From: a virus
Reading direction: 5' to 3' (one strand)
Length of the DNA stretch: 64,000 nt
Virus record (IMG/VR): IMGVR_UViG_3300042914_002215
Below are positions 1 to 29,184 of the stretch, piece after piece. How positions within the stretch are numbered: the stretch's first letter is position 1; each line of letters starts with the position of its first letter. The notes below the pieces were generated by a model, which saw only the letters and a list, made by a program, of their open reading frames with translations, searched no databases and was not told the origin of the DNA. The translations under genes were made by a program, and so were the position numbers.

Positions 1-489
1 CTTGTTGCGGTAGCAAACAATCTGACTAACAATACGAGCGGTGGCTTTGTGATGAACTCTTCAATTTTCATTGAAGGTTCAGAGTCATCTCTAAATGTTC
101 GTACACTTGCAAACATAAATTCACTCACCGCTAACACCGCAAATATTGCAAACGTTTCTTTTAATGGAAGTAATGTTTCAATACCACTTGATTTGACTAT
201 TGGAAGAAATGCAAATTTAGTAGGAAATGTTGCCTCTGTAAATGTTACAAACAGATTGTTCGTTGGTGGTGATACCGTTTTACATGGTAATCTAACTGTA
301 TCCGGTAATGTTACATTAGATGCAATTGGGTATGATGATCTAAGTGTTGCTGGTTCTATCAACTCAGCAAATCTAAACACAAGCACTGGTAATATTACAT
401 TACTTGTTGGAAATGCAAATACAGCAATTTACAGCACTATTACCGCAGCGATTGATTCATCGATTGCGTTTGCGATTGCTCTTGGTTAA
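1..489 (+). CDS. 5'-truncated virion structural/fibre protein ending in hydrophobic tag AIAFAIALG
   Basis: Frame is open from base 1; Asn/Val/Gly-rich beta-repeat sequence; C-terminal SIAFAIALG is typical of T4-like baseplate/fibre proteins. Confidence 0.6.
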   Translation, partial: LVAVANNLTNNTSGGFVMNSSIFIEGSESSLNVRTLANINSLTANTANIANVSFNGSNVSIPLDLTIGRNANLVGNVASVNVTNRLFVGGDTVLHGNLTVSGNVTLDAIGYDDLSVAGSINSANLNTSTGNITLLVGNANTAIYSTITAAIDSSIAFAIALG

Positions 490-518
490 ATAAATACTGA
501 CGATAAACAGAGGATTTA

Positions 519-854
519 ATGGCTAACAATTTTAAAAATAACGTTCTTAAAGCAGCAGGAACAACATTACAAAATGCATATACCGCTGCTTCTGGTGTTC
601 AAGCAACCGTTATTGGTATGACGATTGCGAACATTACCACATCTCCCATATCAGCAAATGTTGTTTTGACCTGTTCTGGTGCTGCTGCACCAAACGTTTA
701 CTTGGTCAAAGATGCTACAATTGCTCCAGGTGGCGCTCTTGTTCCAATCGGCGGTGATCAAAAACTTGTGCTTGAAGCCGGTGATTACTTACAGATAAGC
801 ACTTCAGTTGCATCCGCTGCTGATGTTATCACTTCTGTTCTGGAGATTACCTAA
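519..854 (+). CDS. small virion adaptor-like protein (MANNFKN type)
   Basis: RBS GAGG; 111 aa beta-rich, C-terminal LVLEAGDYL...SVLEIT; directly follows an AIALG-ending gene. Confidence 0.6.
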   Translation: MANNFKNNVLKAAGTTLQNAYTAASGVQATVIGMTIANITTSPISANVVLTCSGAAAPNVYLVKDATIAPGGALVPIGGDQKLVLEAGDYLQISTSVASAADVITSVLEIT

Positions 855-1489
855 TGTCTTACATTGGCAATAATCCTGATGTGAATGTATTTACGATCGG
901 AGTTGATAGATTCAACGGCACAGGCGCTTGTACAGAGTTTATTCTTACAAGAGATATTGATGACGCAAAAGCAATTGAAGTTATTGTTAATGGAGTTCAA
1001 CAAGATCCAGATAATGCTTACACTGTAACAAATGGTTTAATCACATTTAGTGAAGCGCCATCTTCTGGTACAGATAATATTACTGTCACATATCGTGCAC
1101 CTGTTGTTGTTACATTTAATCAAGTTACTACATCACAATTACAAGCAAATGCTGTAACTTCAACTGCTATTGCATCCAATGCAGTCACAACAATTAAGAT
1201 TGCACAAAGTGCTGTTACTGGAGATAAGATTCCTGATCGTGCGATTACATCAAACAACATCGTTGAGGGATCAATCACAAGCAATTTGATTGCAACAAAT
1301 ACAGTTGCAGGTAACAATATCGTTCCTGGTACAATTACAGGCAATTTAATTGCTTCCGGTACAATCGCAGGTAATGCAATTGGTGTTGGACAAATTACAG
1401 GTAATTTAATTGCAGACTTTGCGATTAGTGCAAACAATTTAACAAATCCAGATAATTTTGAAGATTCGTTCTTATTAGGTGGAATGTAA
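854..1489 (+). CDS. fibre/baseplate accessory protein (MSYIGN N-terminus, pentapeptide repeats, C-terminal FEDSFLLGGM)
   Basis: TAATG coupling; ~80-aa V.VNGV.Q.P..AY...ITF.EAP domain followed by AVTxxxIA/ITGNLIA repeats. Confidence 0.6.
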   Translation: MSYIGNNPDVNVFTIGVDRFNGTGACTEFILTRDIDDAKAIEVIVNGVQQDPDNAYTVTNGLITFSEAPSSGTDNITVTYRAPVVVTFNQVTTSQLQANAVTSTAIASNAVTTIKIAQSAVTGDKIPDRAITSNNIVEGSITSNLIATNTVAGNNIVPGTITGNLIASGTIAGNAIGVGQITGNLIADFAISANNLTNPDNFEDSFLLGGM

Positions 1490-1500
1490 AAGGAAAATAA

Positions 1501-1839
1501 ATGGCAAGAATATATAAAATCTTAGGACAAAGAAATCCAGGCTCAGGTGTATTGACGAATGTTTATACTGTGCCAGCTGGCAATTCTGCGGTCGTTTCTT
1601 CTATTGTATTGACAAATACATCGGGCACTGCAACTGGTGGTGTTGCTGCAAGAGTAGCAGTAAACGCTTCTGGTGTAGCGGTTGCAACTGCAAACTATCT
1701 TGCATATGATGTGAACGTTCCTGGCTGTGATAGCGTGACTCTCACACTTGGTATTACAATGAATGCGGGATCTCAATTGTCTGTACAAGCTAATTCATCA
1801 TCATTGGCAATTTCAGTTTTTGGCGCAGAGATTTATTAA
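1501..1839 (+). CDS. small adaptor-like protein, MARxYKILGQ family copy 1
   Basis: RBS AAGGA; clear paralog of 3361-3699 and 27629-27958 (YTVPAGNS, ANYL, FG.E.Y end). Confidence 0.65.
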   Translation: MARIYKILGQRNPGSGVLTNVYTVPAGNSAVVSSIVLTNTSGTATGGVAARVAVNASGVAVATANYLAYDVNVPGCDSVTLTLGITMNAGSQLSVQANSSSLAISVFGAEIY

Positions 1840-1854: not shown

Positions 1855-3351
1855 ATGACAATTCGTTCATTAAATCGAAACACAAACGTAATTAAGAGAA
1901 TTACTAAAAGCCGCACTGCTGCCGATCTTACACGCCGTCGTTCAATTAAACAAGTAATTGCGGGTGAAGGTAAGCCTGATTTTTACATCAAATGGATGAT
2001 TGTTGGAGGAGGTGGTGAGGGTGGTGCTGGAATGGGCGGAGGAGGTGGTGGTGGAGGTATCGTCATTGGTATTAATTATCTTTCACCAACAGGTAATTTA
2101 ACATACGGAACAAACTATCCAATTGGTGTTGGCGGTGGTGGAGGATACTCATCTGGACGTGGTGGTAATGGTGGAGACTCATCATTTTTAGGATTTATTG
2201 CTTACGGTGGTGGCGGTGGTGGAGGACTTAATAGTCCTGCTTCAAATACAAACGCAAGGCCCGGAGGCTCTGGTGGTGGTGAACCCAATTCACTTTACAC
2301 AGCAGCGTTTGGACTTCAAGGAGGAATGGGTGGAGTCAAATTTATAATTGATAATAATCGTCCATATGGAGGATTCGGTAGCGTAAATGATAATCAAGAT
2401 GGCTCAGGAGATAGATCGGGAAAAGGCGGCACAGATAACACTTGGTATGATGATGACTTCACTTACAATAAAAATAAAAATTTAAATCCAGCTTATCCTG
2501 CTCCAGGTCCATTATCATTTAGAGGATATGGCGGTGGTGGTGGTGGTGCAGCTGGTTTTGATGACGGAATCGTTTCTGGCAGTGGAAAAACCGAAGGTGG
2601 TGATGGTGGTGATGGTTATGCATATGGATTTGAAAACAACTTTTTACAAGGACCTATAGCAAATTTTATTTGGGGATTGGGTTATGGTGGTGGTGGAAGT
2701 TCTGGTGGTTATCAAAATAATCCAAGAGATGGTTACAATGGTCCTGCACCTTCCGTTTTTCCAAATGCACCCGGTGGTGTGAAAACTGGATGGGGTTCTA
2801 TTCGTGACGCTGGAGACTCTTGGACAGGCGAACCAAATTGGTCGCCAAACGGAGATGGTATAGGATTCAATCCAAGTCGTGGTAATCCGGGTGAACCTTG
2901 GCATAATGGTCCATCTGGTGGATTTCCTCCTGCTGGCAATTCATTTCCGCCTTTTGGTTATAAATCAGGATTTGGTGAAAATGTCTCACCGGGTGGACCA
3001 GCACCTCTACCATATTCTACGCCAGCTGGATATTATTCAATGAATGGTTTACCAAACTCTGGACAAGGAGGCGGCGGAAGATGGAATGGCGGTTCAAATT
3101 ATAAATGGGCTTGTCGTGGACCTTTTTGGGGATCAGACTCATATAATCCTGGTGCACCAAACTGGTTAGGTCGTGCAGCAGCAAATACAGGAGGTAAAGG
3201 TGGTTCAGGTGTTGTGTTCCTTTCGTATCCGCAAGTATTCGGCAACTGTTCAAACACAGGAAGTCCAGACGTATATGTAACAACAGATGGTTTTAGAATT
3301 TACACATTTAGAGGTAGTGGTTCAATTACAATTGACTACGATCCTAATTAA
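1855..3351 (+). CDS. glycine-rich adhesin-like protein with long aromatic/Pro-rich loops
   Basis: WMIVGGGG start motif and GGSGVVFLSY...IYTFRGSGSI end motif of the phage glycine-rich domain. Confidence 0.6.
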   Translation: MTIRSLNRNTNVIKRITKSRTAADLTRRRSIKQVIAGEGKPDFYIKWMIVGGGGEGGAGMGGGGGGGGIVIGINYLSPTGNLTYGTNYPIGVGGGGGYSSGRGGNGGDSSFLGFIAYGGGGGGGLNSPASNTNARPGGSGGGEPNSLYTAAFGLQGGMGGVKFIIDNNRPYGGFGSVNDNQDGSGDRSGKGGTDNTWYDDDFTYNKNKNLNPAYPAPGPLSFRGYGGGGGGAAGFDDGIVSGSGKTEGGDGGDGYAYGFENNFLQGPIANFIWGLGYGGGGSSGGYQNNPRDGYNGPAPSVFPNAPGGVKTGWGSIRDAGDSWTGEPNWSPNGDGIGFNPSRGNPGEPWHNGPSGGFPPAGNSFPPFGYKSGFGENVSPGGPAPLPYSTPAGYYSMNGLPNSGQGGGGRWNGGSNYKWACRGPFWGSDSYNPGAPNWLGRAAANTGGKGGSGVVFLSYPQVFGNCSNTGSPDVYVTTDGFRIYTFRGSGSITIDYDPN

Positions 3352-3360
3352 GAGAGAAAC

Positions 3361-3699
3361 ATGGCAAGAGCATACAAAATCTTAGGTCAAATTAATCCAT
3401 CAGCAAATGTGCTGAGTACACTTTACACTGTACCCGCTGGTAATTCAACAATCATTTCATCAATTACAATTGCTAATCTTGATGAAAATGCTGCAAATGG
3501 TGCAGCATTTAGAATTGCTGCAAACAACTCTGGTGTTGCTGTTGCCAATGCAAATTATCTTTCATACGGTGTTAATGTACCAGGTCGTGATGCAATAACT
3601 TATACGTTAGGTATAACATTAAATGCTGGTTCAGTTATTTCTGTAAATGCAAACAGTTCATTACTTGCCTTTTCTGCTTTTGGCACAGAAGTTTATTAA
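3361..3699 (+). CDS. small adaptor-like protein, MARxYKILGQ family copy 2
   Basis: Paralog of 1501-1839. Confidence 0.65.
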   Translation: MARAYKILGQINPSANVLSTLYTVPAGNSTIISSITIANLDENAANGAAFRIAANNSGVAVANANYLSYGVNVPGRDAITYTLGITLNAGSVISVNANSSLLAFSAFGTEVY

Positions 3700-3701: not shown

Positions 3702-5648
3702 ATGTCACTCAATAGAGCAAATTTAAATAGAATCTCGTTAAAAAGATTTTCTGTTCCTGGAACAGGCGGTGGAGGTGCTGTCACTCCACCAAGTACATTT
3801 ATTCCAATTGATTATTTTATTGTAGCCGGTGGTGGAGGTAGCGGTCCTTACAGTGGTGGAGGTGGTGCTGGTGGTTTTCTTCAAGGATATTATCAAACGA
3901 ACTTTGCTACTGCGAATGATGCATTCGTTGTTGTAGTTGGTTCTGGTGGTGGTGGTAACACCAATGGCACAAATTCTGGAATTTATTCAACTGCAAATAC
4001 ATTAAACGCCATTTGGTCTGCCGGTGGTGGTCGTGGTGGTGTTGGTCATCCTGTTTGGGCAAGCGGTGGTGGAGATGGTGCTGGTTATGGAGCATCTGGC
4101 GGTTCTGGTGGCGGTGCGGGTACAGGTAACTATAGTTGGCCAACATCACCATTTGGCTATTTAGTTGGTGGTTTAGGCATTGGAGCACAAGGTAATGATG
4201 GTGGACAATCTGGTTATTTTGACGGTGCTCCTGGCTGGTCTTGGGGTGAAGCTGGTGGTGGTGGAGGAGCACTGGGTCGTGGAACTCAAGGTGGACAAGG
4301 TAGAAATCAGCCTCCTGTTTATACAGGTGGTGGAGGTGGTAATGGTGGCATTGGCATATTCTCGACATTTACTGGTGCAAACGTAGGCTATGCTGGTGGT
4401 GGAGGTGGATTTAATATTCCAATGACACCCTTAGATGGTACAAATACTTATGGTGGCATTGGTTATTTTAGTTGTGGTGGAGGTAATTCTGCTGCCACAT
4501 ATGCGAATAATTTTATATTCAGACAGCAAACAAATGGTGGAGAAAATACCGGCGGCGGTGCTGGTGGTGGGCTCAACTCTAGAGGTGGTTCTGGTATTGT
4601 TATTATTCGATATCCAAATACTTATGCAAATGCAATAATTGCTGGTAATGCAGTGTTTTCAAACGTAGAAAGTTACTTTAGATGTTATACATTTAGATCA
4701 ACTGGAACAATTATTTTTCCATCAACGGGCGCTGCACCAAATGTGCCTACGGGTGGACCAACACAGATAGATTATCTTGTCGTTGCTGGTGGTGGTGGTG
4801 GAACTACAGCAAGTGGTGGCGGTGGCGGTGGTGGAGTTTTACAAGGTTCAGGATATAAGATTTCAACTGGCGTTACATACACAATTAGTATCGGTGGCGG
4901 TGGTGGTGCTAATACTAACGGCGTCAATTCTGGGATTTATAATACAAGCGCATCTGTCTGGTCTGCCGGTGGTGGTCGTGGTGGTGTTGGTGTACCGGTA
5001 TTTGTTGAACCTGTGAGTAGAGGTGCTTCAGGTGGTTCCGGTGGTGGTGCTGGTGCAGTTGATTATTCGGCAGGACAATCAGGTAATTTTGGTGGTAGTG
5101 AAGGAGTACCGGGACAAGGATTTGGTGGTGCTCGTTCTGGTCCGGCTGCACCAGGACCACCTTGGGCAAGAGGTGGCGCCGGTGGCGGTGGCGGTGCTGG
5201 TGGTTCGGGCGCAGAAGGAGGTGGTGGTTCAAGTTTTGACTATTATGGTGCAGCAGGTGGAAATGGTGGCGTTGGTATTTTCTCTACAATCACTGGTGCA
5301 AATGTAGGTTACGCCGGCGGTGGTGGTGGTAACAACGATCAACTAAGTCCATTACAAGGATGGCCTCCAGGATTGCCTGGCGGTATAGGATATATCAGTT
5401 GCGGTGGTGGTAATAGCGCATTCATATTAGCAAATGGATTTACGATAAGAGCAAGAACTGGTGGTACAACAAACAGAGGTGGTGGCGCTGGAGGTGGTGC
5501 GCCTGCTGCAAGTGGCGGCTCTGGTGTTGTGATTGTCAGATACTTAGATTCTTTTTCTAATGCAGTTGTAACTGGAAGTCCAACGTTTGCAAACGTTGGA
5601 GGATACAAGATATATACATTCAATGGAGCAGGAACTATAACATTTTAA
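3702..5648 (+). CDS. glycine-rich adhesin-like protein, two tandem domains
   Basis: Two IDY(F/L)(I/V)VAGGGG...GGSG(I/V)VI(I/V)RY units; identical 33-nt segment at 4014-4046 and 4959-4991. Confidence 0.65.
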   Translation: MSLNRANLNRISLKRFSVPGTGGGGAVTPPSTFIPIDYFIVAGGGGSGPYSGGGGAGGFLQGYYQTNFATANDAFVVVVGSGGGGNTNGTNSGIYSTANTLNAIWSAGGGRGGVGHPVWASGGGDGAGYGASGGSGGGAGTGNYSWPTSPFGYLVGGLGIGAQGNDGGQSGYFDGAPGWSWGEAGGGGGALGRGTQGGQGRNQPPVYTGGGGGNGGIGIFSTFTGANVGYAGGGGGFNIPMTPLDGTNTYGGIGYFSCGGGNSAATYANNFIFRQQTNGGENTGGGAGGGLNSRGGSGIVIIRYPNTYANAIIAGNAVFSNVESYFRCYTFRSTGTIIFPSTGAAPNVPTGGPTQIDYLVVAGGGGGTTASGGGGGGGVLQGSGYKISTGVTYTISIGGGGGANTNGVNSGIYNTSASVWSAGGGRGGVGVPVFVEPVSRGASGGSGGGAGAVDYSAGQSGNFGGSEGVPGQGFGGARSGPAAPGPPWARGGAGGGGGAGGSGAEGGGGSSFDYYGAAGGNGGVGIFSTITGANVGYAGGGGGNNDQLSPLQGWPPGLPGGIGYISCGGGNSAFILANGFTIRARTGGTTNRGGGAGGGAPAASGGSGVVIVRYLDSFSNAVVTGSPTFANVGGYKIYTFNGAGTITF

Positions 5649-5662: not shown

Positions 5663-6082
5663 ATGAATAACGAACAAATTACTTATGCACAATACTTAAT
5701 TGGTAACAACAACAAACTTGTTTGTGGTATTGATACTGCTATTAAAGCACTAAGACCAACAGCAAGATATGATATGTCTGCGTCTGGTGGACATTTTGAG
5801 TTCACACGTTGGGAAGATGAAGCAGATACTAAACCACCAACAAAAGAAGAGATTTTCAAAGAATTAGAATATCAGAATAAGTTTATCGACTATTGGCAAC
5901 ACTTCGTAGATCGTGCTGCTAACTATCCTGATATTGTAGTTCTAATTAACAATTTATGGGAAGCAATTGATTCTGGCGCAATACCAGGTAAAGGAACCGC
6001 ATTCTATGATTCAATCAAAGAAATCAACGATAAGTTTCCAAGACCAGCTGGTGAACCACCAGTAAGACCGACATACGAATAA
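5663..6082 (+). CDS. hypothetical protein, possible fibre assembly/XkdW-like
   Basis: RBS AGGAG; ALRP.A......W.D....PPT.EEI pattern; lies downstream of an adhesin-like gene. Confidence 0.4.
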   Translation: MNNEQITYAQYLIGNNNKLVCGIDTAIKALRPTARYDMSASGGHFEFTRWEDEADTKPPTKEEIFKELEYQNKFIDYWQHFVDRAANYPDIVVLINNLWEAIDSGAIPGKGTAFYDSIKEINDKFPRPAGEPPVRPTYE

Positions 6083-6093: not shown

Positions 6094-7044
6094 ATGTCAT
6101 ATATTGGCAATCAAGTTACTTCTGTACCACACATAATTGATACCTTTACTGGCACAGGCACAGGTACAACATTTGGTCCTTTGACGAGAGCACCTGCTGG
6201 CACTGCGGCTATAGCAGTTTTTATCACAGGATCTTATCAAATACCTGGTGTTGATTATACGTTAAATGGCGACTATATCAACTTTGTTGCTGCTCCATTT
6301 AATCTTGCGACAATCGTTGTTCATCATTTAGGTAATGGTACAACAACACAAGTACCATCTGATGGATCTGTTACTGGAACAAAATTAGCAGTTAATTCTG
6401 TTCGTGGTAATAATATTGTTGCGGGCACTATTACAGGCAATCAAATTTCTCTTAGTGCTATTTCAGGTAATCAGATAGGTGCTTATGCTGTATCAGGCAA
6501 CCAAATTGGTGTCGGTGCTATTAGTGCCAATAATTTTGCTGGTGGTGGCATTACATCAAATGTTCTTGCACCGAATCTGACATTAACGCTGACGAGAACA
6601 AATGAAACGACGAATTTATTTTCCACTGCACCTTCAGGAAATATAAACATTGACGTTGCAAATACAACGTTATATTATTTCACATCAAATACGACAGCGG
6701 GTATAACTTTTAATCTTCGTGCAAACAGTGTAAACACTTTTGATTCAGTAGTTAGAATTGGTGAAACTGTCACTGTAACAGTTATGCTTCGTCATTCAAC
6801 AACGTCAGGCGGTCGTCATCCAGCAAATGTTTATATTGATGGTGGACTTATTTCCACCAATAGAACAAATCCAGATCAAGCTGGTGCTAATAATATATTT
6901 TATGTTGGTAATTTAGTACCAATTTATGCTGCAACAATACCAGGAACTGGTGTTGAAATGAATATGTATAATATAAGCGTTTTTAAACGAGCGGCAAATA
7001 CTTATACAGTATTCATGTCTAATACTACAGCACAAATAGGATAA
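6094..7044 (+). CDS. fibre accessory protein (MSYIGN N-terminus, pentapeptide repeats, C-terminal TFNLR domain)
   Basis: Shares its N-domain with 854-1489 and its C-domain (YYF.SN....TFNLR) with 7978-8637 and 23776-24420. Confidence 0.6.
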   Translation: MSYIGNQVTSVPHIIDTFTGTGTGTTFGPLTRAPAGTAAIAVFITGSYQIPGVDYTLNGDYINFVAAPFNLATIVVHHLGNGTTTQVPSDGSVTGTKLAVNSVRGNNIVAGTITGNQISLSAISGNQIGAYAVSGNQIGVGAISANNFAGGGITSNVLAPNLTLTLTRTNETTNLFSTAPSGNINIDVANTTLYYFTSNTTAGITFNLRANSVNTFDSVVRIGETVTVTVMLRHSTTSGGRHPANVYIDGGLISTNRTNPDQAGANNIFYVGNLVPIYAATIPGTGVEMNMYNISVFKRAANTYTVFMSNTTAQIG

Positions 7045-7046: not shown

Positions 7047-7955
7047 ATGGGCAGACTTAATTCGTTATTGTCAGTAACAACCAGTGCTTTTGGAAATAAA
7101 AGAAGAGCAGCCGCAACTATATTCACAAGCAGTGGAACATTAACAATTCCTCCTGCTGTTCCTGGATTTGATGTTTTAATCGTTGGTGGTGGAGGTGGAG
7201 CATCAAGTTCTAACCCAGCCGGTGGTGGTGGAGCTGGTGGTGTTAGATACATTACCGGGGTTGATATTAAGCCAGGAACAGTTGTAAATGTTATAGTTGG
7301 AGGTGGCGGTGGAGCCGCTTCGCCTGTTGGTGTGCAGGGATCTAATTCCGGTATATGGTTTCCTACTCCGTTATCACCTCCCTTTCCATTTTTTTATGCT
7401 CAATACTGGTCAACTGGTGGTGGATATGGAGCGGGGGCTAATCCTAGTCCAGGAACAGGTAATGCAGGTGGAAATGGCGGATCAGGCGGTGGAGCTGGCG
7501 GCGGAGGAAATCCTATAACAAATAGTGGAGGATTAGGAACTCCGGGTCAAGGGAATAATGGTGGTAATGCCGGATTTATTAGAGCGGGTGGAGGTGGCGG
7601 CGCCGGTGGTGTTGGAGCAGATGGCAGCAGTTCAAACGGAGGTTTAGGCATATTCTCTAGCATAAGTGGAACGAATACTGCCTATGCTGGCGGTGGTGCA
7701 GGATGCAGTGGACCGAACGATCCTTTTTATGGTAATGTAATAGGCAATGGAGGCGGTGGTAGTTCTAGAACACCTGGAAGTTATGGTTCTCCTAATTCAA
7801 TAGTAGCACCTTATGGTGCATTTGTGGGCACACCTTTTGGTGCTGGTGGTGGTGGCACAGGAGAAAGTGGCGTTACAAATTCGGGCGGTGGTGGCGGTGG
7901 AAATCCGGGAGGTGGTGGAGCTGGCGGATCTGGCATCGTTATCTTTAGTTATTAA
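7047..7955 (+). CDS. glycine-rich adhesin-like protein, single domain
   Basis: VLIVGGGGG...GGSGIVIFSY. Confidence 0.6.
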   Translation: MGRLNSLLSVTTSAFGNKRRAAATIFTSSGTLTIPPAVPGFDVLIVGGGGGASSSNPAGGGGAGGVRYITGVDIKPGTVVNVIVGGGGGAASPVGVQGSNSGIWFPTPLSPPFPFFYAQYWSTGGGYGAGANPSPGTGNAGGNGGSGGGAGGGGNPITNSGGLGTPGQGNNGGNAGFIRAGGGGGAGGVGADGSSSNGGLGIFSSISGTNTAYAGGGAGCSGPNDPFYGNVIGNGGGGSSRTPGSYGSPNSIVAPYGAFVGTPFGAGGGGTGESGVTNSGGGGGGNPGGGGAGGSGIVIFSY

Positions 7956-7977: not shown

Positions 7978-8637
7978 ATGCCTTTAACAAGAATAGTAGG
8001 CGCAAGCATAACAGACGGAACAGTTGTTGCTGCCGACATAGCAGATGGTTCTGTTACTGGTTCAAAATTAGGTACTGCTTCTGTAAGTGGTAATAATATT
8101 GGAACTGGTGCAATTTCAGCAAACAATTTTGCGGGCGGTGGCATTACATCAAATGTTCTTGCATCAAATTTGAGTATTTCAGTTTCACGTGTATCTGAAA
8201 CGTTATCAATCAATACAGCCGTAATTGGTTCAAACAGTGCATCAGGTACAAATGTAAATCTTGATATCATCAATACAACTGTTTATTATTTTAGTTCGAA
8301 TACTTCTGGTAATGTAACGTTTAATCTTCGTGGTAATAATATCAATACATTTGATTCTGCTGTTCAAGTTGGTAATACAGTTTCAGTTGTGGTAACATTA
8401 CGACATAACACAGCAGCATATCGTTCTGGCGTAAATGTGATGATTGATGGCGGTCTTATTAGAACTACATTAGCAAATCCTGATTCAGATAATTTAATAA
8501 TGTATTCGGGCAACACATTGCCAACACACTCCGTCATTAATGCTATCGAATCTAATATTATTGGATTAACTGTGATAAAGAAAGCAGCAAACTCTTATAT
8601 TGTTTACATGTCTAACACAATATTTGGATTGACATAA
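7978..8637 (+). CDS. fibre accessory protein with C-terminal TFNLRG domain
   Basis: RBS AAGGA; GAISANNFAGGGITSNVLA shared with 6094-7044. Confidence 0.6.
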   Translation: MPLTRIVGASITDGTVVAADIADGSVTGSKLGTASVSGNNIGTGAISANNFAGGGITSNVLASNLSISVSRVSETLSINTAVIGSNSASGTNVNLDIINTTVYYFSSNTSGNVTFNLRGNNINTFDSAVQVGNTVSVVVTLRHNTAAYRSGVNVMIDGGLIRTTLANPDSDNLIMYSGNTLPTHSVINAIESNIIGLTVIKKAANSYIVYMSNTIFGLT

Positions 8638-9557
8638 TGCCATTTCAAGCAACATTTGGTAATGCATCATTAAGAACTTTTGGATTAGGAGCTACTAGAA
8701 GAAGAATTGGTGCTAACGTAGCGGTTCAATATCTTATGGTTGCGGGTGGAGGCGGCAGTACCTGGTCTGATAGGGGAACATCCGGAGCAGCAGGAGCCGG
8801 AGGTTTAAAAACAGGAATACAAAATACTTCAGGCTCAGCTAGATTGTTTATTCAAATTGGTGCTGGTGGTACAGGTTGGTCTAATGGCACGAATTCCTCA
8901 ATAACTTCAGTGGAAGGTGTGTGGAGTAACATATCATCTGATGGAGGTGGCGCTGGTGGTTGGTTTTCCGGTTCCACTTTTTATACAGCATATGATGGAG
9001 GCTCTGGTGGAGCCGGTTCTGGTAGAAGAGGTGCTTTTGGTGAATTTCCTTCTGCTGGACAAAGTGGTGCGCTTGGTTATCCTGGTCAAGGATATAATGG
9101 AGGTAGTGGAGAAGGTAGACCAGGAGGCACAGCTGGAGGAGGAGGCGGTGGTGCTGGTGGTGCTGGAACCAATGGCTATGATGGCGGCAACAATATTCTA
9201 TATGGTGGAAATGCTGGTGCTGCTTATTCATCACCAATTTCAGGAACACCTGCAAATTATGCTGGCGGTGGTCAGGGAGCCGCGACTCAAGCTGGCGCTG
9301 GAGCCGTGAATGGCTCTTCTGCGGCTCCAGGTGGAACGATAGAAAGTAATGCTCCAGCTAATGGCGGAGGTGGTGCTGGTGGTGTTAGAGACACTGCTCC
9401 CGGAGGTAGCACATATTCAGGCGGCAGCGGAATAGTGATTTTAAGAAGTTTAGCAAGAGCATCTAATACAGTTGGCAGCCCTACAGAAACACAAATAGGT
9501 AATGAGTGGATTTATACGTTCAATGGTTCAGGTGAAATAGTTATAGGTTCAGCATAA
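8637..9557 (+). CDS. glycine-rich adhesin-like protein, single domain
   Basis: TAATG coupling; MPFQATFGNASLRTFG leader; YLMVAGGGG...GGSGIVILR...IYTFNGSG. Confidence 0.6.
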   Translation: MPFQATFGNASLRTFGLGATRRRIGANVAVQYLMVAGGGGSTWSDRGTSGAAGAGGLKTGIQNTSGSARLFIQIGAGGTGWSNGTNSSITSVEGVWSNISSDGGGAGGWFSGSTFYTAYDGGSGGAGSGRRGAFGEFPSAGQSGALGYPGQGYNGGSGEGRPGGTAGGGGGGAGGAGTNGYDGGNNILYGGNAGAAYSSPISGTPANYAGGGQGAATQAGAGAVNGSSAAPGGTIESNAPANGGGGAGGVRDTAPGGSTYSGGSGIVILRSLARASNTVGSPTETQIGNEWIYTFNGSGEIVIGSA

Positions 9558-9576: not shown

Positions 9577-9960
9577 ATGGCAGCACCTAATATAGTCGCA
9601 GTCACAACTATTCGAGGCAAATCAAATGTTGCCAATCTCACTACGACCTCATCAAGTGTTGTAGTGAATGATATCAATTCAGGTAAAGTATTTAAAATAA
9701 ACACAATTATTGTATCAAATGTTGATGGTACAAATTCTGGTAATGTAACAGTTGAACTATTTAAGTTTGGCGCACAAAATGTCGCAACAGGTACGGGCAA
9801 CTCAGTATATTCACTTGCAAACGTTGTGACGGTGCCAGCAAAGTCATCACTTGATATTATGTCAAAGTCACTCTATCTTGAAGAGGGTGATCATCTCAAA
9901 GCAAAAGCAGATTCAAACAATCGTCTGCATCTTATTACTTCATTCGAAGAGATTAGCTAA
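9577..9960 (+). CDS. small adaptor-like protein (MAAPNIV type)
   Basis: RBS AAGGA; KINTIIVSNVDG and YLEEGD...SFEEIS motifs; distant similarity to 519-854. Confidence 0.6.
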   Translation: MAAPNIVAVTTIRGKSNVANLTTTSSSVVVNDINSGKVFKINTIIVSNVDGTNSGNVTVELFKFGAQNVATGTGNSVYSLANVVTVPAKSSLDIMSKSLYLEEGDHLKAKADSNNRLHLITSFEEIS

Positions 9961-12597: not shown

Positions 12598-12981
12598 ATG
12601 GCACATTTTGCACAACTTGATGAAAACAATGTAGTAACTCAAGTCATTGTTGTGTCCAACAATGAACTACTTGACGCTAGTGGCGTTGAGCGTGAAGAGA
12701 TGGGTATTGGTTTTTGCCAAAGATTGTTTGGTGGCAATTGGAAGCAAACATCATACAATCATAACTTCCGCAAGCGTTACGCAGGTATTGGATACACATA
12801 CAATGCAGAACTTGATGCATTTGTTCCACCTAAACCATTTCCTTCATGGGTATTAGACAATGATGAAGCAAACTGGAAAGCACCTGTTGCACAACCAGCG
12901 GATGCAGGACAAGGTGATCCACCTAAGGTGTATACATGGAATGAAGAAACAACTTCATGGGATGAAGTAGTACCAGCATAA
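12598..12981 (+). CDS. MAHFAQL-family protein copy 1 (putative fibre-tip/assembly factor)
   Basis: RBS GGAG; W.QTSY...FRKRYAG, FVPPKP.PSWVLD, WNEE...W. Confidence 0.55.
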   Translation: MAHFAQLDENNVVTQVIVVSNNELLDASGVEREEMGIGFCQRLFGGNWKQTSYNHNFRKRYAGIGYTYNAELDAFVPPKPFPSWVLDNDEANWKAPVAQPADAGQGDPPKVYTWNEETTSWDEVVPA

Positions 12982-12983: not shown

Positions 12984-13382
12984 ATGGCACACTTTGCACA
13001 ATTGAATGAAAACAATGAAGTTATTCAAGTCATTGTCGTTCGCAATTCTGAAATAATAGATGAAAACGGTTATGAATCTGAACAAAGAGGTATAGAGTTT
13101 TGTCAGAATCATTTTGGAGGAGGTCGTTGGATTCAAACTTCATATACTGGAAGTTTTCGTAAAAGATATGGTGGAGTTGGCACAGTATACCTTGAAGAAT
13201 ATGATATATTTGTGCCACCAAAACCATGGCCATCATGGGTATTGGATGTAAAATCCGGTGATTGGGATCCTCCAGTTCCGTATCCACCAGAACATGGACG
13301 ACCAAGACCTGAAGATGGTAAATATATTCATTATGAGTGGAATGAAGAAAGTCAACAGTGGATTAATCCTACACTCTCTTAA
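12984..13382 (+). CDS. MAHFAQL-family protein copy 2
   Basis: Tandem paralog of 12598-12981. Confidence 0.55.
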   Translation: MAHFAQLNENNEVIQVIVVRNSEIIDENGYESEQRGIEFCQNHFGGGRWIQTSYTGSFRKRYGGVGTVYLEEYDIFVPPKPWPSWVLDVKSGDWDPPVPYPPEHGRPRPEDGKYIHYEWNEESQQWINPTLS

Positions 13383-13402: not shown

Positions 13403-13427
13403 AAACCCTGCTTCGGCAGGGTTTTTT
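13403..13427 (+). terminator. intrinsic terminator
   Basis: AAACCCTGC-TTCG-GCAGGGTTT hairpin (cUUCGg loop) plus T-tract. Confidence 0.85.
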
Positions 13428-23775: not shown

Positions 23776-24420
23776 ATGCAAACAGTTACTACATTACCAA
23801 TACTGCAAACCGTTAGTGATTCACAAGATCACTATATCGGTTTGCAGCCCGCAATTGGTGGAAAAACAACGGCAGAGTATGTCAATCGCAATCTGTCGTT
23901 CAATCCTGCATCAAACACTCTGAACATTGGAGTTAATGTTCAATTTCTGCCTAATGCTGTGAGTGGTGCAGCAATTGCTGATGGTGGTATCACTTCATCA
24001 AAAATTGGTGCGCTTACACGACTAATTGAACAGGCAAAAATAATTCCAGGCACAACGGGTGGTAATGTAAACATTGATTTATTGGAAGCGACAGTATATT
24101 ATCTCACTGGATTTCCAAGTGCTAATTTGACATTCAATCTTCGTGGAAGTTCTTCAAGAAGATTAGATGAATTGTTAAATCCTGGCCAATCAATCAGCAC
24201 TGTATTTTTGATATCTCAAAATGTGAATCAATATGCAGCAAATATATCTATTGACGGGATTTATCAAGCAGCAAATACAAGATATCTTGGTAATTCAAAG
24301 CCAGGATTTGCAACTCTAACGGGTAATCCAATCATTGATGTGTATTCAATAGTGACATTAAAAGTTGGCGCAAACGCATACACTGTGTTAAGTTCTAATA
24401 CTGCTTTCGGAACAGGTTAA
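23776..24420 (+). CDS. fibre accessory protein with C-terminal TFNLRG domain
   Basis: LSFNPASNTL; GNVNIDL...VYY...LTFNLRG shared with 6094 and 7978. Confidence 0.55.
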   Translation: MQTVTTLPILQTVSDSQDHYIGLQPAIGGKTTAEYVNRNLSFNPASNTLNIGVNVQFLPNAVSGAAIADGGITSSKIGALTRLIEQAKIIPGTTGGNVNIDLLEATVYYLTGFPSANLTFNLRGSSSRRLDELLNPGQSISTVFLISQNVNQYAANISIDGIYQAANTRYLGNSKPGFATLTGNPIIDVYSIVTLKVGANAYTVLSSNTAFGTG

Positions 24421-24421
24421 T

Positions 24422-24595
24422 ATGCCAGAACAAAAAGTTGAATCGGGTCGTATAGCAACAGGTGCAGTCACTACAGACAAGATTGCGCCTCTTGCTATTA
24501 CAGGTAATCTTATTGCAAACAACGCTGTCAGTGGAAACAATATTGTTTCACCTCCGGATATTTTCGATGATGCACTTTTATTTGGTGGTATGTAA
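24422..24595 (+). CDS. 57-aa fibre stub (absent from ORF track): MPEQKVESGRIATGAVTTDKIAPLAITGNLIANNAVSGNNIVSPPDIFDDALLFGGM
   Basis: Translated by hand; fills the gap exactly, TAATG-coupled to the next gene; same repeats and C-terminal tag as 854-1489. Confidence 0.75.
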   Translation: MPEQKVESGRIATGAVTTDKIAPLAITGNLIANNAVSGNNIVSPPDIFDDALLFGGM

Positions 24596-24822
24596 TGATA
24601 CAAAAAGTTAGAACGAGTTTAATTGCAGATCAAGCAGTTGATGGTAATAACATGGGTGTTCGTGCTGTTAGTGCGAATAATATAGCACTCGGTGCTATTA
24701 CAGGCAATCTTATTTCAACAAGTGCAGTCAGTTCAAACAACATTGCTAACGGTTCTATCACTAACGACAAATTGTCTGAGCCGAACGCATTTGAAGATTA
24801 CTTTCTAATGGGTGGTTTGTAA
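24595..24822 (+). CDS. 75-aa fibre stub ending AFEDYFLMGGL
   Basis: Pentapeptide repeats plus conserved tag; TAATG coupling on both sides. Confidence 0.7.
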   Translation: MIQKVRTSLIADQAVDGNNMGVRAVSANNIALGAITGNLISTSAVSSNNIANGSITNDKLSEPNAFEDYFLMGGL

Positions 24823-27386
24823 TGGGTTTAAAAAGGTACACCGTAGCAAGCATCACTAATCAAAGATTCACTGTTCGTGGATTTGGTGGAGGTGCTATCA
24901 CACCTGCTGCACCAGTCGTTACGAATACTGCTATACAAATATTTACGGAAAGTAGTGCATGGGTGGCACCACCTGGTGTAACATCAGTTGAATATCTTGT
25001 TGTTGCTGGTGGAGGAGGTGCAGGTTTTAATCACTCGGGTGGTGGCGGTGGAGGTGGTTATCGTGCAGGTACTGGTTTATTTGTAACAGCAAATCAAACG
25101 TATACAATTGTTGTTGGTGGTGGTGGCACAGGAGGTTCTTCTGCTGGCAACAGAGGAGGAAACGGCTCAAATTCTGGAATTTATGGAACTGCTCCTTTTT
25201 CAGCCCTATGGTCAACTGGAGGAGGAGGTGGAGGAAACAGACACGATGGGACTCAAGCTCCAGCACAACATGGGAACTCTGGCGGTTCTGGAGGTGGTGG
25301 TGGTGGCGAAGATATTTCCGGCGCCGGAAATGGTGGTTCTGGTACGCCTGGCCAGGGATTTTCTGGTGGAAATGGTATAAATGGAAACTCTTTGGCATCA
25401 GGCGGCGGTGGTGGTGGCGCAGGCGCAGCTGGATTAAACGCTGCACCATCTTTAGGAGGTAACGGTGGTATAGGTATTTTTTCCACAATTACCGGTGCAA
25501 ATGTAGGATACGCTGGTGGTGGTGGCGGTGGTGGAATGGGGACCGGAGGTTTAGGAGCATTTTCGTTTGGTGGAGCAAATGGACATATATTAACTAATTC
25601 TACTGGCTCATCTGGAAATGTAAATCTTGGAGGTGGTGGTGGAGGCACTGGACCTTCAACTAATCCATCGGGAACAGGTGGTGCTGGCGGTTCTGGTATT
25701 GTTGTTCTCAAATACACATTTGGTGATGCTACAAATCAAACATTTGTCTTTGCAAATACAGGACAATTTAGAGTACCTGATGGAATCACAACAATTGATT
25801 ATCTGTTAGTTGCAGGTGGAGGTGGAGGAGGTTCTCAATCTGGCGGTGGCGGTGGCGGTGGTGGTGTTCTTGTTGGTACAGGATATCCCGTAGGACCAAA
25901 TCAATTATACACTATTCAAGTTGGTGCGGGAGGTTCTGGTGTGCCTTCCGTAGCGCCGGGCGGCGGCTCTTTTTCTGGAAATAATGGAACGAATACTGTT
26001 TTCTCAACAGGTAACACAGCAAATTCTGCTTTATTTACCGCTGTAGGAGGCGGTGGTGGTGGAAGAACAACTGCAAATGGAGCAAATGGCGGTTCGGGTG
26101 GTGGAGCAGGTAGTTCTTCTATAAGTGCTCGTTTGGGTGGTACAGGTACACCAGGACAAGGATATGATGGTGGAAATAATATAGTTTCTGGAACAACCAA
26201 TTTTATGGCTGGCGGCGGTGGTGGTGGTGCTGGTGTTAAAGGTGGAGATTCTTTTTGGATTAGTAGTCCAAATACTATAGCTAGTGGTAATGGTGGTAAT
26301 GGTATTTTTTCAACAATCACAGGAACATCTGTCGCTTATGGTGATGGTGGTGGCGGTGGTTCATATAATCGTGGTGCTCCTATAGGACCGGGCTATACAT
26401 ACTATTCTTCCGGTGGATATGGTTCAGGTGGTGCGGGAGGTGTAAATTTAGAAGCAAATGGAACGGACGCTATTGTTTCCACTGGCTCTGGTGGTGGTGG
26501 AGGTGGTTTAGCAGGTACTTTGCCAGCTGGTAAATCTGGTTCAGGCAGTTCGGGTATAGCAGTCATCAAAATATCAGCAGTACAAAATAAGATTGCAGTG
26601 TTCTCCAACACAGCAACATGGAATGTTCCAACAGGTGTAACTGCCGTTGATTATGTTGTCGTGGGTGGAGGTGGAGGTGGTGCATCTGGAGGTGGTGGCG
26701 CTGGTGGATATAGAACAGGAGCAAGTTTTCCAGTAACGCCAGGAACATTAATGACGGTTACTGTTGGTGCTGGCGGTGCAGGTGGTATTGCAACAAGTCC
26801 TGCTATGACACCCGCATCAAACGGAACAGACTCCATTTTCTCAACAATCACATCAGCTGGTGGTGGAGGTGGTGCTGGCTATCCATCAAACTCGGGCAGA
26901 AGTGGTGGCTCCGGTGGAGGTGGTGCAACAAGTGGTCCGAATCAACAAGGTGGCCAGGGTAATTGGTGGTCAAGTAATAACTCATTCTCAGGAATTTCAC
27001 CAGCACAAGGAACAAGTGGAGGCTCTGGTTACGGATATTTTGGTGTAGCTGGTGGCGGTGGCGGTGGCGCAGGTGCAAATGGTGCAAGTGCAGTCGTAGA
27101 CTTAACAAATGTTGCTGGAGCGGGTGGTATCGGCACACCATCAACTATAACAGGATCGGCAGTATATTATGCTGGTGGCGGCGGTGGTGGTGCATCAAAT
27201 GGTTCACCGGGCGCCACAGCAGCAGCAGGAGGTCTTGGTGGTGGCGGTAATGGTTCTAGTGCTGCTGCGCCAGTAGGAGGTAGTAATGGTGGCGCAGGTT
27301 TAGGCGGCGGTGGTGGCGGTTCAGGCACACCTGGAACAGTTGGCGGCTCTGGTGGTGGCGGAGTTGTCATTCTCAAATGGACATAA
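24822..27386 (+). CDS. glycine-rich adhesin-like protein, three tandem domains
   Basis: Paralog of 9960-12548 (QIFTES, FVFANTGQ..PDGITTIDYL, VIKISA.QNKIAVFSNTATWNVPTGV, VVILKWT). Confidence 0.65.
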   Translation: MGLKRYTVASITNQRFTVRGFGGGAITPAAPVVTNTAIQIFTESSAWVAPPGVTSVEYLVVAGGGGAGFNHSGGGGGGGYRAGTGLFVTANQTYTIVVGGGGTGGSSAGNRGGNGSNSGIYGTAPFSALWSTGGGGGGNRHDGTQAPAQHGNSGGSGGGGGGEDISGAGNGGSGTPGQGFSGGNGINGNSLASGGGGGGAGAAGLNAAPSLGGNGGIGIFSTITGANVGYAGGGGGGGMGTGGLGAFSFGGANGHILTNSTGSSGNVNLGGGGGGTGPSTNPSGTGGAGGSGIVVLKYTFGDATNQTFVFANTGQFRVPDGITTIDYLLVAGGGGGGSQSGGGGGGGGVLVGTGYPVGPNQLYTIQVGAGGSGVPSVAPGGGSFSGNNGTNTVFSTGNTANSALFTAVGGGGGGRTTANGANGGSGGGAGSSSISARLGGTGTPGQGYDGGNNIVSGTTNFMAGGGGGGAGVKGGDSFWISSPNTIASGNGGNGIFSTITGTSVAYGDGGGGGSYNRGAPIGPGYTYYSSGGYGSGGAGGVNLEANGTDAIVSTGSGGGGGGLAGTLPAGKSGSGSSGIAVIKISAVQNKIAVFSNTATWNVPTGVTAVDYVVVGGGGGGASGGGGAGGYRTGASFPVTPGTLMTVTVGAGGAGGIATSPAMTPASNGTDSIFSTITSAGGGGGAGYPSNSGRSGGSGGGGATSGPNQQGGQGNWWSSNNSFSGISPAQGTSGGSGYGYFGVAGGGGGGAGANGASAVVDLTNVAGAGGIGTPSTITGSAVYYAGGGGGGASNGSPGATAAAGGLGGGGNGSSAAAPVGGSNGGAGLGGGGGGSGTPGTVGGSGGGGVVILKWT

Positions 27387-27412
27387 AATAAATACGAACA
27401 AAAGAGACAGCA

Positions 27413-27619
27413 ATGGTAGATATCGTAAGAGTAGGTTCAAATCGTATAGCAAATAGTTCAGTGACAGGCAATAAAATTGCTGATAACTCTATTCGTGCTA
27501 ACAATATCGTTGCTGGACAAATTACAGGCAATCTAATTGCCGATAATACAGTTACAAATTCAAATCTTTCAGAGCCAAACGCTTTTGAAGATTACTTTTT
27601 ATTAGGTCTAGGCTCATAA
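27413..27619 (+). CDS. 68-aa fibre stub ending AFEDYFLLGLGS
   Basis: Same repeats and tag as 24595-24822. Confidence 0.7.
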   Translation: MVDIVRVGSNRIANSSVTGNKIADNSIRANNIVAGQITGNLIADNTVTNSNLSEPNAFEDYFLLGLGS

Positions 27620-27628
27620 GGAAAAAAA

Positions 27629-27958
27629 ATGCCAAGAAGATATGCTATTTTAGGACAAATTAACCCATCAGCAAATACACTTGCAACTTTATATCAAGTG
27701 CCAGCAGGTAATTCTGCTGTTATTTCTTCAATCAATATTGCAAATCTTGATGCTAATGCTGCTGCTTTTAGTATTGCTGCTAATGTATCTGGTATTGCAA
27801 CTGCTAATGCAAACTATCTTGCATGGCGTGTTTCTGTGCCAGGCAATGATTCAATTGCATTGAGTTTGGGTGTGACACTTAATGCATCATCGTATTTGTC
27901 TGTTAATGCTAATACATCAACAGTTACTTTCTCAGCTTTTGGCACAGAACTCTACTAA
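27629..27958 (+). CDS. small adaptor-like protein, MARxYKILGQ family copy 3
   Basis: MPRRYAILGQINPSAN...FGTELY; RBS AAGGA. Confidence 0.65.
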   Translation: MPRRYAILGQINPSANTLATLYQVPAGNSAVISSINIANLDANAAAFSIAANVSGIATANANYLAWRVSVPGNDSIALSLGVTLNASSYLSVNANTSTVTFSAFGTELY

Positions 27959-29184
27959 TGCCAATCCGTAAGTTTACTAATGGTCGTTTCAGCGTAAAAC
28001 GATTCACTGCACCAGGTGCAGGAAGTTCTGCTTCATTTCCGCCTACTTGGGTTACAGCGAATGGTTCACTGGGAATTGTATCAAGAAATTCGGCGTTTAC
28101 ACCTGCCACAGTTACCGCAATTTCTTCCGGATCAATCATCTATGCGGTTTCTTCAGGAACATTGCCTGAAGGATTGTATTTAGGATCATCTAATGGAACT
28201 ATTTTTGGAACATACTCTTTAGCACCAAAACCGAATACTGGAAATAGTTTAATTAAAAATTTTAATGTTAGAGCAACAGATACTTCTTCAGGATTATTCA
28301 GTGATGCATCTTTTTCGATTAATACAATTAATGAATTTGTTACCACTGTAAATTTTTCTTATACAGGCGCAGATCAACTTTATACTTTACCTCCAAATGT
28401 TAATTGGGTTAGAGCACAGTTGTGGGGTGCGGGTGGAGGAAATTGGAGAGCAACAACAGGCGCAGGAGGATATACAGAAGCTATAGTTTCAGTTCCTTCT
28501 GGAGTTAATACAATGAATGTTATTGTTGGTGGTGCGGGAGGAAATTATAATGGTGGTTATGGTGGAGGAGGATTCTCAAACGTAGACGGTGGTAGTGGTG
28601 GCGGTGGTGGCGGTGGTAGAAGTGCAATTCGATTTGCTTCTCCTGGAAATCCTTTTGTTGAAGTTTTAACTGCTGGTGGAGGTGGTGGTTCTGGTTTAGG
28701 TGGTAATTCTGGTGGTGGCGGTGGCGGTTTAACAGGTTTACCCGGAAATGGTCCGGCAGCGGGTACTGGAGGAACACAGAGTACGGGTGGTGCTGGAGGC
28801 ACAGGAAGCGGTGGAACAGCAGGATCAGGATCACAATTTCAAGGAGGAACTTCCACTGGCGGCTTCTCAGGCGGTGGCGGTGGCGGTGGTTATTATGGTG
28901 GTGGTGGTGCTTCAGGTGTGCCTACACAGCATCATGGTGGTGGTGGCGGTTCTGGATTCATTGGAACAAATGGATCAACTGCATTACCTGGAAACGAACA
29001 AGGATCGTTTAGCACTTTTGGAGATACAACTCCAAGATTTGATTCAGTTCGTGCCGTTTATTATGAATACACAAGATGTTTGAGAGGTGGTACAGCTAAT
29101 AGTGCTGCTGCATATTCTGGTCCAGGTTATTCACCTGGAACTGGAGGGTCTGGACAAAACGGTTACGTGTCAGTTTCTTGGTAA
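27958..29184 (+). CDS. Ig-like domain plus glycine-rich adhesin-like protein
   Basis: P.WVT..GSLG...YAVSSGTLPEGL.L...G.I.GT...FNVRATD Ig-like repeat, then LWGAGGG...NGYVSVSW. Confidence 0.6.
   Translation: MPIRKFTNGRFSVKRFTAPGAGSSASFPPTWVTANGSLGIVSRNSAFTPATVTAISSGSIIYAVSSGTLPEGLYLGSSNGTIFGTYSLAPKPNTGNSLIKNFNVRATDTSSGLFSDASFSINTINEFVTTVNFSYTGADQLYTLPPNVNWVRAQLWGAGGGNWRATTGAGGYTEAIVSVPSGVNTMNVIVGGAGGNYNGGYGGGGFSNVDGGSGGGGGGGRSAIRFASPGNPFVEVLTAGGGGGSGLGGNSGGGGGGLTGLPGNGPAAGTGGTQSTGGAGGTGSGGTAGSGSQFQGGTSTGGFSGGGGGGGYYGGGGASGVPTQHHGGGGGSGFIGTNGSTALPGNEQGSFSTFGDTTPRFDSVRAVYYEYTRCLRGGTANSAAAYSGPGYSPGTGGSGQNGYVSVSW

Follow-up and report, generated by a model that had tools for sequence, protein, structure and literature searches.

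The long tail fibre of T4 consists of the separately encoded segments gp34, gp35, gp36 and gp37, with a small separate protein at the joint. In other phages, several receptor-binding proteins (RBPs) are mounted together via N-terminal docking modules, as in CBA120 TSP1-4, G7C gp63.1/gp66, the K1-5 adaptor, phi92 and RaK2. Jointed fibres (T4 gp34-37), separate Gly-rich adhesins (gp38) and branched spike complexes are therefore known already. Branched systems with multiple RBPs have been discussed previously (PMC10253068, PMC4819975), and the distal part of the Pam3 fibre gp24 (PDB 7YPX/7YFW) is trimeric and was proposed to be the receptor-binding end (PMC9608196). In this study, we analysed positions 1-29184 of a 64,000-nucleotide stretch of viral DNA (IMG/VR record IMGVR_UViG_3300042914_002215; the whole stretch is called the window, and positions are counted from its first letter), which is the fibre cluster of an uncultured marine T4-like myovirus, with a focus on five small proteins of the family phrog_1276, here named connectors. 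A free-standing jelly-roll connector that occurs across phage families in three matched classes read by terminal peptides seems to be undescribed: in the literature searched, neither this connector nor the rule for tags and leaders set out below was described, and the papers on the A1002 'chain-like fibre' and on phiRIO-1 report other arrangements.

We propose, with moderate confidence, that this small jelly-roll protein is a non-covalent fibre joint. The parts of the fibre cluster are encoded separately and would be joined end to end without covalent links. On one side, the connector, which is probably a trimer, would bind the short hydrophobic Gly-ended C-terminal peptides (tags) of a proximal trimeric stalk, and on the other side the N-terminal peptide (leader) or N-terminal domain of the protein that follows. 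Each of the three joints would have its own paralogous connector clade, so that they do not mix. The data show the protein families, the folds, the co-occurrence by class, the swapped payloads and the fusions. We infer that the parts bind physically and are present in the virion, as well as their stoichiometry and the pairing of heads with stalks. The connectors of the window are as follows (aa, amino acids; AF2, AlphaFold 2).

519..854, + strand: connector type 1, MANNFKN..., 111 aa, phrog_1276
1501..1839, + strand: connector type 2, MARIYKILGQ, 112 aa, phrog_1276
3361..3699, + strand: connector type 2, second copy, behind a head, not a stalk
9577..9960, + strand: connector type 3, MAAPNIV, 127 aa, phrog_1276
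27629..27958, + strand: connector type 2, third copy, MPRRYAILGQ, 109 aa, AF2 model a jelly roll

The five proteins form one family with three subtypes, and all match phrog_1276 (profile matches of E 6.7e-9 for 519, 5.9e-6 for 1501 and 2.1e-4 for 9577). The connectors at 1501, 3361 and 27629 are mutually 54-69% identical, and those at 519 and 9577 are more remotely related to them within the family. Five relatives that were examined each carry exactly one connector per type; the window carries five because its type-2 module has multiplied. A HMMER scan of 1.84 billion representatives with a profile built from 73 members returned 5337 cluster representatives related to the connector, giving a family size of at least 5,337 clusters at 50% identity, and these relatives are mostly free-standing proteins of 105-130 aa.

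Using a profile of the small proteins, 42 related viral contigs were retrieved, in which the gene order is conserved and three channels can be recognised. In channel 1, a stalk ending in ...IAF(A/S)IALG is followed by a MANxFKN connector and then by an M(S/A)YIGN stalk (tag pairs 28/28, leader pairs 28/28). Channel 2 runs from ...DIFDDAFLFGGM through a MARxYKILGQ connector to a basic leader such as MALNR..SLKRMTVPG; the tag pattern is ...FDDxFLxGGM, the basic leaders are 25-45 aa long, and the pairs were found in 29/29 cases for the tag, where a stalk precedes, and in 32/35 for the leader. Channel 3 joins ...S(I/V)(I/V)FGG to a MAAPNIV connector and an M..G(F/L)NGGIIG leader, with 13/13 tag and 17/18 leader pairs. 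Altogether, 70/70 tag-adaptor pairs and 77/81 adaptor-leader pairs were class-concordant, none of the four non-concordant pairs carried the leader of another class, and the number of cross-class pairs was zero, by which chance association is rejected.

A sequence-only reading of this DNA had claimed that C-terminal tags and N-terminal leaders act as class-specific docking peptides, and had proposed covariation of the three classes across uncultured T4-like genomes as a check. The association proved to be non-random, and tags, adaptors and leaders are coupled class by class both in these contigs and in other families. Of its three classes, the class-wise termini hold, but its class B merges two channels, MANxFKN and MAAPNIV. 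The same reading described a multi-tip apparatus, but the IALG/MANxFKN joint links a stalk to another stalk, the one at 854, and not to a head. Since this type-1 joint connects stalk to stalk, the system is partly serial and resembles a jointed fibre, rather than consisting of tips only.

Further, several observations indicate that the class coupling exceeds inherited gene order: connectors are shuffled, tags and leaders occur in isolation, and payloads are swapped. Type-2 and type-3 connector copies lying behind a head still precede a matching leader, and the leader is retained on second heads that do not adjoin any connector. Tags are also present on genes far from connectors in both the window and the relative G001, namely a type-3 tag on the giant fibre and type-2 tags on the mini-stalks before gp13. 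The type-2 connector is followed at seven loci by a protein that is not rich in Gly, and 7/7 of these proteins keep the ...NR.SL(K/R)RFPFP leader; the four of these loci that were scanned (L005, L009, L016 and L025) contain DUF7483 repeats, in some cases together with Laminin_G_3 (ConA-like lectin) or SBBP beta-propeller domains. A fourth, connector-free mode was observed in nine loci and twice in the window, in which a stalk with a TFNLR domain directly precedes a Gly-rich head of ~300 aa (1404 aa in L040) with the leader MP.L..L......FG..RR.

The stalks and related proteins of the window that bear on this rule are listed below.

1..489, + strand: 3' end of a proximal fibre protein, 5'-open, tag type 1 ...SIAFAIALG, ~300 aa in relatives
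854..1489, + strand: stalk with MSYIGN N-terminal domain and fibre repeats, type-2 tag ...FEDSFLLGGM, phrog_892 and phrog_18673 tail fibre
6094..7044, + strand: stalk with MSYIGN N-terminal domain and fused C-terminal TFNLR domain, phrog_5906
7978..8637, + strand: short stalk MPLTRIVG... with TFNLR domain
14045..20206, + strand: giant fibre, 2053 aa, tag type 3 KAIAMSIVFGG, not adjacent to its connector
23776..24420, + strand: TFNLR-domain protein, 214 aa, after a 1028-aa virion protein
24422..24595, + strand: mini-stalk, 57 aa, type-2 tag FDDALLFGGM at the C-terminus
24595..24822, + strand: mini-stalk, 75 aa (TAG75), type-2 tag FEDYFLMGGL
27413..27619, + strand: mini-stalk, 68 aa, type-2-like tag FEDYFLLGLGS

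The distal proteins (heads) are seven.

1855..3351, + strand: Gly-rich head, basic leader MTIRSLNRNT...KR, Gly_rich_2 20.8 bits, just under the cut-off
3702..5648, + strand: two-domain Gly-rich head, leader MSLNRANLNRISLKRFSVPG
7047..7955, + strand: one-domain Gly-rich head, leader MGRLNSLLSVTTSAFGNKRR, AF2 model matches the Pam3 fibre tip
8637..9557, + strand: one-domain Gly-rich head, leader MPFQATFGNASLRTFG, phrog_2295
9960..12548, + strand: three-domain Gly-rich head, leader MAVRFNGGIIG
24822..27386, + strand: three-domain Gly-rich head, basic leader MGLKRYTVASITNQRFTV, no adjoining connector gene
27958..29184, + strand: head with basic leader, He_PIG immunoglobulin (Ig) domain and ALK/LTK-type Gly-rich domain

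All open reading frames (ORFs) named by the sequence-only reading exist on the plus strand at their coordinates, including the intact ORF 24422-24595, which is missing from a 60-aa-minimum ORF list because it has just 57 aa. In the proposed arrangement, the protein at 1-489 would be linked by connector 519 to stalk 854, and stalk 6094 would probably be mounted in the same way as 854, because the MSYIGN domain is common to both. Stalk 854 and the three mini-stalks would offer type-2 tags to connectors 1501, 3361 and 27629 (a tail of the F(E/D)D.(F/L)L.GG type ends four stalks of the region), and these connectors would carry the heads at 1855, 3702, 24822 and 27958. The type-3 tag of the giant fibre at 14045 would be linked by connector 9577 to head 9960, and the TFNLR stalks 6094 and 7978 would carry heads 7047 and 8637 directly. 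The distal pieces would be receptor-binding heads with 1-3 TNF-like plus polyglycine domains, or lectin or beta-propeller proteins in relatives, and the outcome would be a jointed, branched, many-tipped adsorption apparatus.

As tags are common to several stalks and leaders to several heads, one connector type could mount different heads on different stalks. Such sharing of tips between stalks is plausible from the gene content, since the numbers of tags, connectors and leaders are not 1:1:1; in G001, for example, type 2 comprises two tags, one connector and one head, and type 3 shows the same numbers. The combinatorial mounting of adhesins claimed earlier is at most suggested by these unequal numbers per genome. 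A complex prediction with three copies each of mini-stalk 27413, connector 27629 and residues 1-130 of head 27958 scored 0.00, which is no answer and weighs neither way.

The three-class system is widespread and not special to the window. The type-1 triad is present in eight cultured phages, namely Pelagibacter podophage HTVC010P (with a MAYIGRE stalk ~1 kb downstream), cyanomyovirus S-TIM5, Roseobacter phage CRP-9, Rhizobium phage RHph_I1_18, Ochrobactrum phage OC, Yersinia phage GN1, SAR116 phage HMO-2011 and Methylophilales phage Melnitz. The type-3 triad was found in phage DSL-LC04, Synechococcus phage S-SKS1, pelagiphage HTVC033P and cyanophage Bellamy; the type-3 heads of S-SKS1 are not Gly-rich and start with MLGFNGGTIG and MPLYNGGRIG. 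A type-2 tag with its connector occurs in actinophage phiPsal1, where ...ALMLMGG is followed by MASSYKILGQ, and in the contigs L041, which has a small genome, and L063. In the latter, an uncalled ORF missed by gene callers (L063:3330-3684) encodes a collagen-like Gly-X-Y mini-stalk that ends in IFALMGA directly before a double-connector gene. In Bellamy (L053:6551-8378), a 160-aa 'tail fiber' ending in FDTWLYGGG is followed by a 120-aa protein (MALERGKLSN...) and a Gly-rich protein with a basic leader, and this set may be a diverged type-2 triad.

In a maximum-likelihood tree of 27 connectors, the three groups coincide with tag class, and two clades have support of 100/99 and 99/98. The tree alone does not prove co-evolution, because kin share labels. 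However, peptides of ten residues that are encoded outside the connector gene still correspond to the connector clade at a connector identity of 35-45%, and no DNA similarity was detected between these cross-family genomes. The retention of the peptides under these circumstances points to selection on the peptide itself. This bears on a reading in which the conserved termini are DNA homology blocks for recombination of fibre cassettes and have no role in protein docking. A role as homology blocks would agree with the mosaic structure of the fibre genes, with breakpoints right after the leaders, and with the resemblance of 24422 and 24595 to recombinants of a single 116-aa gene in G001; nevertheless, homology blocks would not account for tags and leaders that are kept as peptides across families, and we regard this reading as very improbable.

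In natural fusions, the connector domain lies where a stalk ends and a distal piece begins. In P0240, a stalk of fibre repeats has two connector domains at its C-terminus, and in P0247, a type-2-like connector domain forms the N-terminus of a 526-aa distal protein with a distal part of 420 aa. P0160 combines two connector domains, a collagen triple-helix repeat and a C-terminal head domain. P0202 is a single chain of three tandem connector domains with two Gly_rich_2 genes behind it, and this triple tandem hints at a connector trimer. In a library of predicted viral protein structures, the connector fold also forms part of tail-fibre-like proteins from P-SSM2 and S-CAM1.

The main rival to the joint is that the small jelly-roll protein acts as a chaperone or cap in fibre assembly, which accounts for the tag link but leaves unexplained both the fusions and the tracking of connector clade by leader class across families. 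In that case, it would nucleate stalk trimerisation via the C-terminal tag, like T4 gp38/gp57A or the tail fibre assembly protein (Tfa) of Mu/P2, and then leave or stay as a cap, and the heads would dock by their leaders elsewhere or directly on the tag. The succession of fibre gene and small gene is indeed the classic fibre-chaperone order, the tag-connector link is the strictest one found, the acidic type-2 tags and basic leaders could pair directly, and TAG75 is followed by head 24822 without an intervening connector gene. On the other hand, separate chaperone candidates adjoin, which are the MAHFAQL proteins in the window (described below) and an annotated Tfa behind the distal fibre of Yersinia phage GN1; as GN1 encodes the connector as well as this Tfa, the connector there is not the sole candidate chaperone. 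Homologues are also labelled as structural proteins in several deposited genomes; the genes of CRP-9, HTVC010P, S-TIM5 and Rhizobium phages that carry the label 'structural protein' share 36-53% identity with connector 519. We consider a chaperone or cap unlikely.

Returning to the non-covalent joint, the AF2 model of connector 27629 is an 8-strand jelly roll with a predicted local distance difference test (pLDDT) value of 90.9. The best fold match was the KHP40 trimeric cement protein (Z 9.9, root-mean-square deviation (rmsd) 2.6 over 102 residues), and other matches were the HFTV1 turret (Z 9.7), the STIV turret and TNF-family chains (Z 6.9-7.3, which falls within the background range of the search). 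On a further reading, the small protein would itself be the distal knob of each stalk, a host-binding C1q/TNF-like lectin, and the Gly-rich proteins would be independent fibres elsewhere on the baseplate. Some homologues are labelled 'putative lectin' or 'C1q globular head like', and the connector domains of P0246 and L043 contain a 250-aa insertion that resembles an added binding domain. However, the connectors rank with the best-conserved genes of the cluster, with 60-92% identity across hundreds of relatives from metagenomes, and the heads are hypervariable, which is the opposite of what is expected of a receptor-binding tip. Moreover, a type-1 connector is always followed by a stalk with an attachment-type N-terminal domain, as with the MAYIGRE stalk of HTVC010P. 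The knob is thus rather improbable in our view, even more so than the chaperone.

Several observations weigh against the connector being a joint. The jelly-roll matches are generic and do not imply function, since Z ~10 barely exceeds the search background of 7-8, and a search of PDB sequences with the connector profile returned no solved homologue. The 'virion structural protein' labels on connector homologues are depositors' annotations that were not traced to mass-spectrometry tables; for the fold homologue in S-SCSM1, the ORF was not found in the supplement text of the paper reporting 45 virion proteins by mass spectrometry. Kinship inflates the counts within the 42 contigs, and only the cross-family cases are independent. 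TAG75 (24595) directly precedes head 24822 with no adjoining connector gene, and the type-2 connectors of L036 and L037 have no head behind them. In phiPsal1, nothing resembling a distal partner was found behind the connector, which may therefore end that fibre, as a knob would.

Concerning the TFNLR domain, its occurrence in 6094, 7978 and 23776 was noticed from the sequence alone, and it is a real family (phrog_5906) with a pairwise identity of 31-47%. As a candidate for a fused connector it was rejected, because profile-profile comparison detected no similarity (connector versus TFNLR alignments had a probability of 0.3%). No model of the TFNLR domain was found in the Atlas of predicted structures.

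The seven heads (1855, 3702, 7047, 8637, 9960, 24822 and 27958) have Gly contents of 26-36% and, with the exception of 27958, belong to Gly_rich_2/phrog_2295. Against the whole-protein gathering cut-off of Pfam PF21722 Gly_rich_2 (24.3 bits), the scores were 35.9 bits for 3702, 45.4 for 7047, 172.2 for 9960 and 193.6 for 24822; head 8637 was scanned against PHROGs only, where it matched phrog_2295. Head 27958 scored 31.4 bits over residues 154-356 for PF12810 ALK_LTK_GRD (cut-off 24.5 bits) and 33.5 bits for He_PIG. The prediction of about 12 Gly-rich domains was borne out by a purpose-built hidden Markov model, which gave 3+3+2+1+1+1 domains in addition to the ALK-type domain of 27958.

The AF2 model of head 7047 has a pLDDT of 78, and the first 15-20 residues, corresponding to the leader, are of low confidence and unstructured. 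It matches the Pam3 fibre 7ypx_A with Z 15.5, rmsd 2.6 A over 172 residues and 34% identity, and the match spans both the beta-sandwich and the polyglycine lattice. Further matches were the mycobacteriophage Bxb1 tail tip (Z 14.5) and the TNF-like plus Gly-rich domains of ALK/LTK (Z ~8), and the remaining fold rows had Z 2.4 and below. PDB sequence searches with heads 7047 and 27958 and with the MAHFAQL protein returned nothing meaningful, and a word-based homologue search with head 7047 gave 2 matches, swamped by Gly-rich words. The gp38 family was not among the Pfam/PHROG output for the heads, and S16 gp38 (6F45) was not among the fold matches of 7047. These data relate the heads to the Pam3 gp24 tip, with its TNF-like and Gly-rich parts. 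The sequence-only reading saw the system as a generalised form of the gp37-gp38 tip of T-even phages; homology of the heads to gp38 is not supported by these searches.

Two groups of accessory proteins accompany the stalks and heads.

5663..6082, + strand: conserved 139-aa protein, precedes the second MSYIGN-type stalk in the window and all relatives
12598-12981 and 12984-13382, + strand: two paralogous MAHFAQL proteins, phrog_7759, following the last head of the first block

The two MAHFAQL paralogues are 55% identical to each other and had no Pfam match and no PDB sequence match. In the distant contigs L041 and L042, as well as in Methylophilales phage Melnitz (E 1e-28 and 5e-19), homologues come directly after Gly-rich heads. 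We regard them as candidate assembly chaperones for Gly-rich heads. In pelagiphage HTVC010P, the MAYIGRE stalk is directly preceded by a weak relative of the 5663 protein (26% over 109 aa), and the 5663-6082 product may be another fibre accessory protein.

The assignment of region 1-29184 to a T4-like fibre cluster is based on T4-type core genes downstream and on the placement of the cluster in a relative. The core genes encode gp13-, gp14- and gp15-like neck/tail completion proteins, large terminase, sheath, portal and major capsid protein, the last being 64% identical to its closest counterparts, which are from cyanophages such as P-RSM6. When the adjacent core genes were compared by megablast with 50,697 phage genomes, zero DNA-level matches were obtained, and no close cultured relative was thus found among them. 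The complete 172-kb relative G001 has a 96% identical gp13, and its fibre cluster is located between the baseplate wedge genes and gp13.

The genes of the region are all on the plus strand and tightly packed, and many starts overlap the preceding stop. A strong terminator-like hairpin with a T run at 13403-13424, inside a 92-nt gap after 13382, is the only clear transcription stop within the fibre cluster and divides it into two units. The giant fibre gene is closely preceded by an ORF starting with TTG (13475-13810), for which matches to phrog_1084 and to phrog_3304 were found; phrog_3304 (E 8e-24) has the label 'L-shaped tail fiber protein assembly'. The last 140 residues of the giant fibre contain repeats similar to the MSYIGN N-terminal domain of 854 (32% over 142 aa), and there is in addition a weak Pfam DUF2460 match.

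The mini-stalk genes look mosaic when window positions 23776-27619 are compared with L044:18559-19550 and L046:17850-19650. The single 116-aa gene of G001 matches the N-terminus of ORF 24595 and the C-terminus of ORF 24422, and the N-terminus of 24422 resembles that of the TFNLR protein in L046. Relative to G001, the modules [24595+24822] and [27413+27629+27958] are gained in the window.

Taken more broadly, the connector might be an ancient three-channel peptide/jelly-roll/peptide joint that is common to many tailed-phage families, with channels that apparently do not cross. The families covered are pelagiphage podoviruses, cyanomyoviruses, T4-like phages of Rhizobium/Methylophilales and an actinophage siphovirus, and we hold this wider proposal tentatively, at slightly less than even credence. 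If it is true, the C-terminal tags, connector clades and N-terminal leaders of a genome would reveal which stalk carries which tip, and swapping a peptide of 10-40 residues could move tips between stalks. Host recognition is poorly understood in the abundant marine phages of SAR11, SAR116, picocyanobacteria and roseobacters, and their fibre genes are mostly annotated as 'hypothetical'. The tag-connector-leader rule would permit fibre architecture to be deduced from metagenomes and would explain the exchange of tips by recombination just behind a conserved leader. It also provides a concrete, testable assembly model for multi-tip adsorption devices and a proposed role for the large, function-unassigned family phrog_1276.

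In comparison with known systems, the arrangement resembles the T4 long tail fibre in having a joint protein between a proximal C-terminus and a distal N-terminus and in a gene order that follows assembly order. In contrast, the connector is a 110-aa jelly roll and not a 372-aa hinge protein, and the connectors form three paralogous, apparently non-interchangeable classes that would be used several times per virion. The gp35 or gp36 family, to which they may yet be distantly related, was not returned for connectors and stalks from Pfam and PHROG. Like Tfa and T4 gp38-type chaperones, the connector is encoded by a small gene directly behind a fibre gene and would recognise the C-terminal end of the fibre, but it is all-beta, is fused into fibres in some phages and has other chaperone candidates adjoining. 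In Pfam, connectors, the 5663 protein and the MAHFAQL proteins had no match to Tfa (PF02413).

As in T2/S16 gp37-gp38, a separately encoded polyglycine adhesin would sit on the C-terminal tip of a trimeric fibre (PMC9608196, comparison with S16 gp38). However, gp38 attaches by its own N-terminal helical domain without a third protein, whereas the heads described here have a leader of 20-45 aa and 1-3 tandem domains of the Pam3/ALK-type TNF-like plus Gly-rich fold. Pam3 gp24 shares this distal fold with the 7047 model, but gp24 has its own N-terminal helical shaft docking on the baseplate and a two-domain chaperone, gp25, and in the window the shaft is a separate gene product, with a connector gene between shaft and head. 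Finally, the branched multi-RBP complexes are alike in being multivalent receptor-binding apparatuses, but their docking domains are part of large spikes, whereas docking here would be performed by a free-standing small jelly roll and two short peptides.

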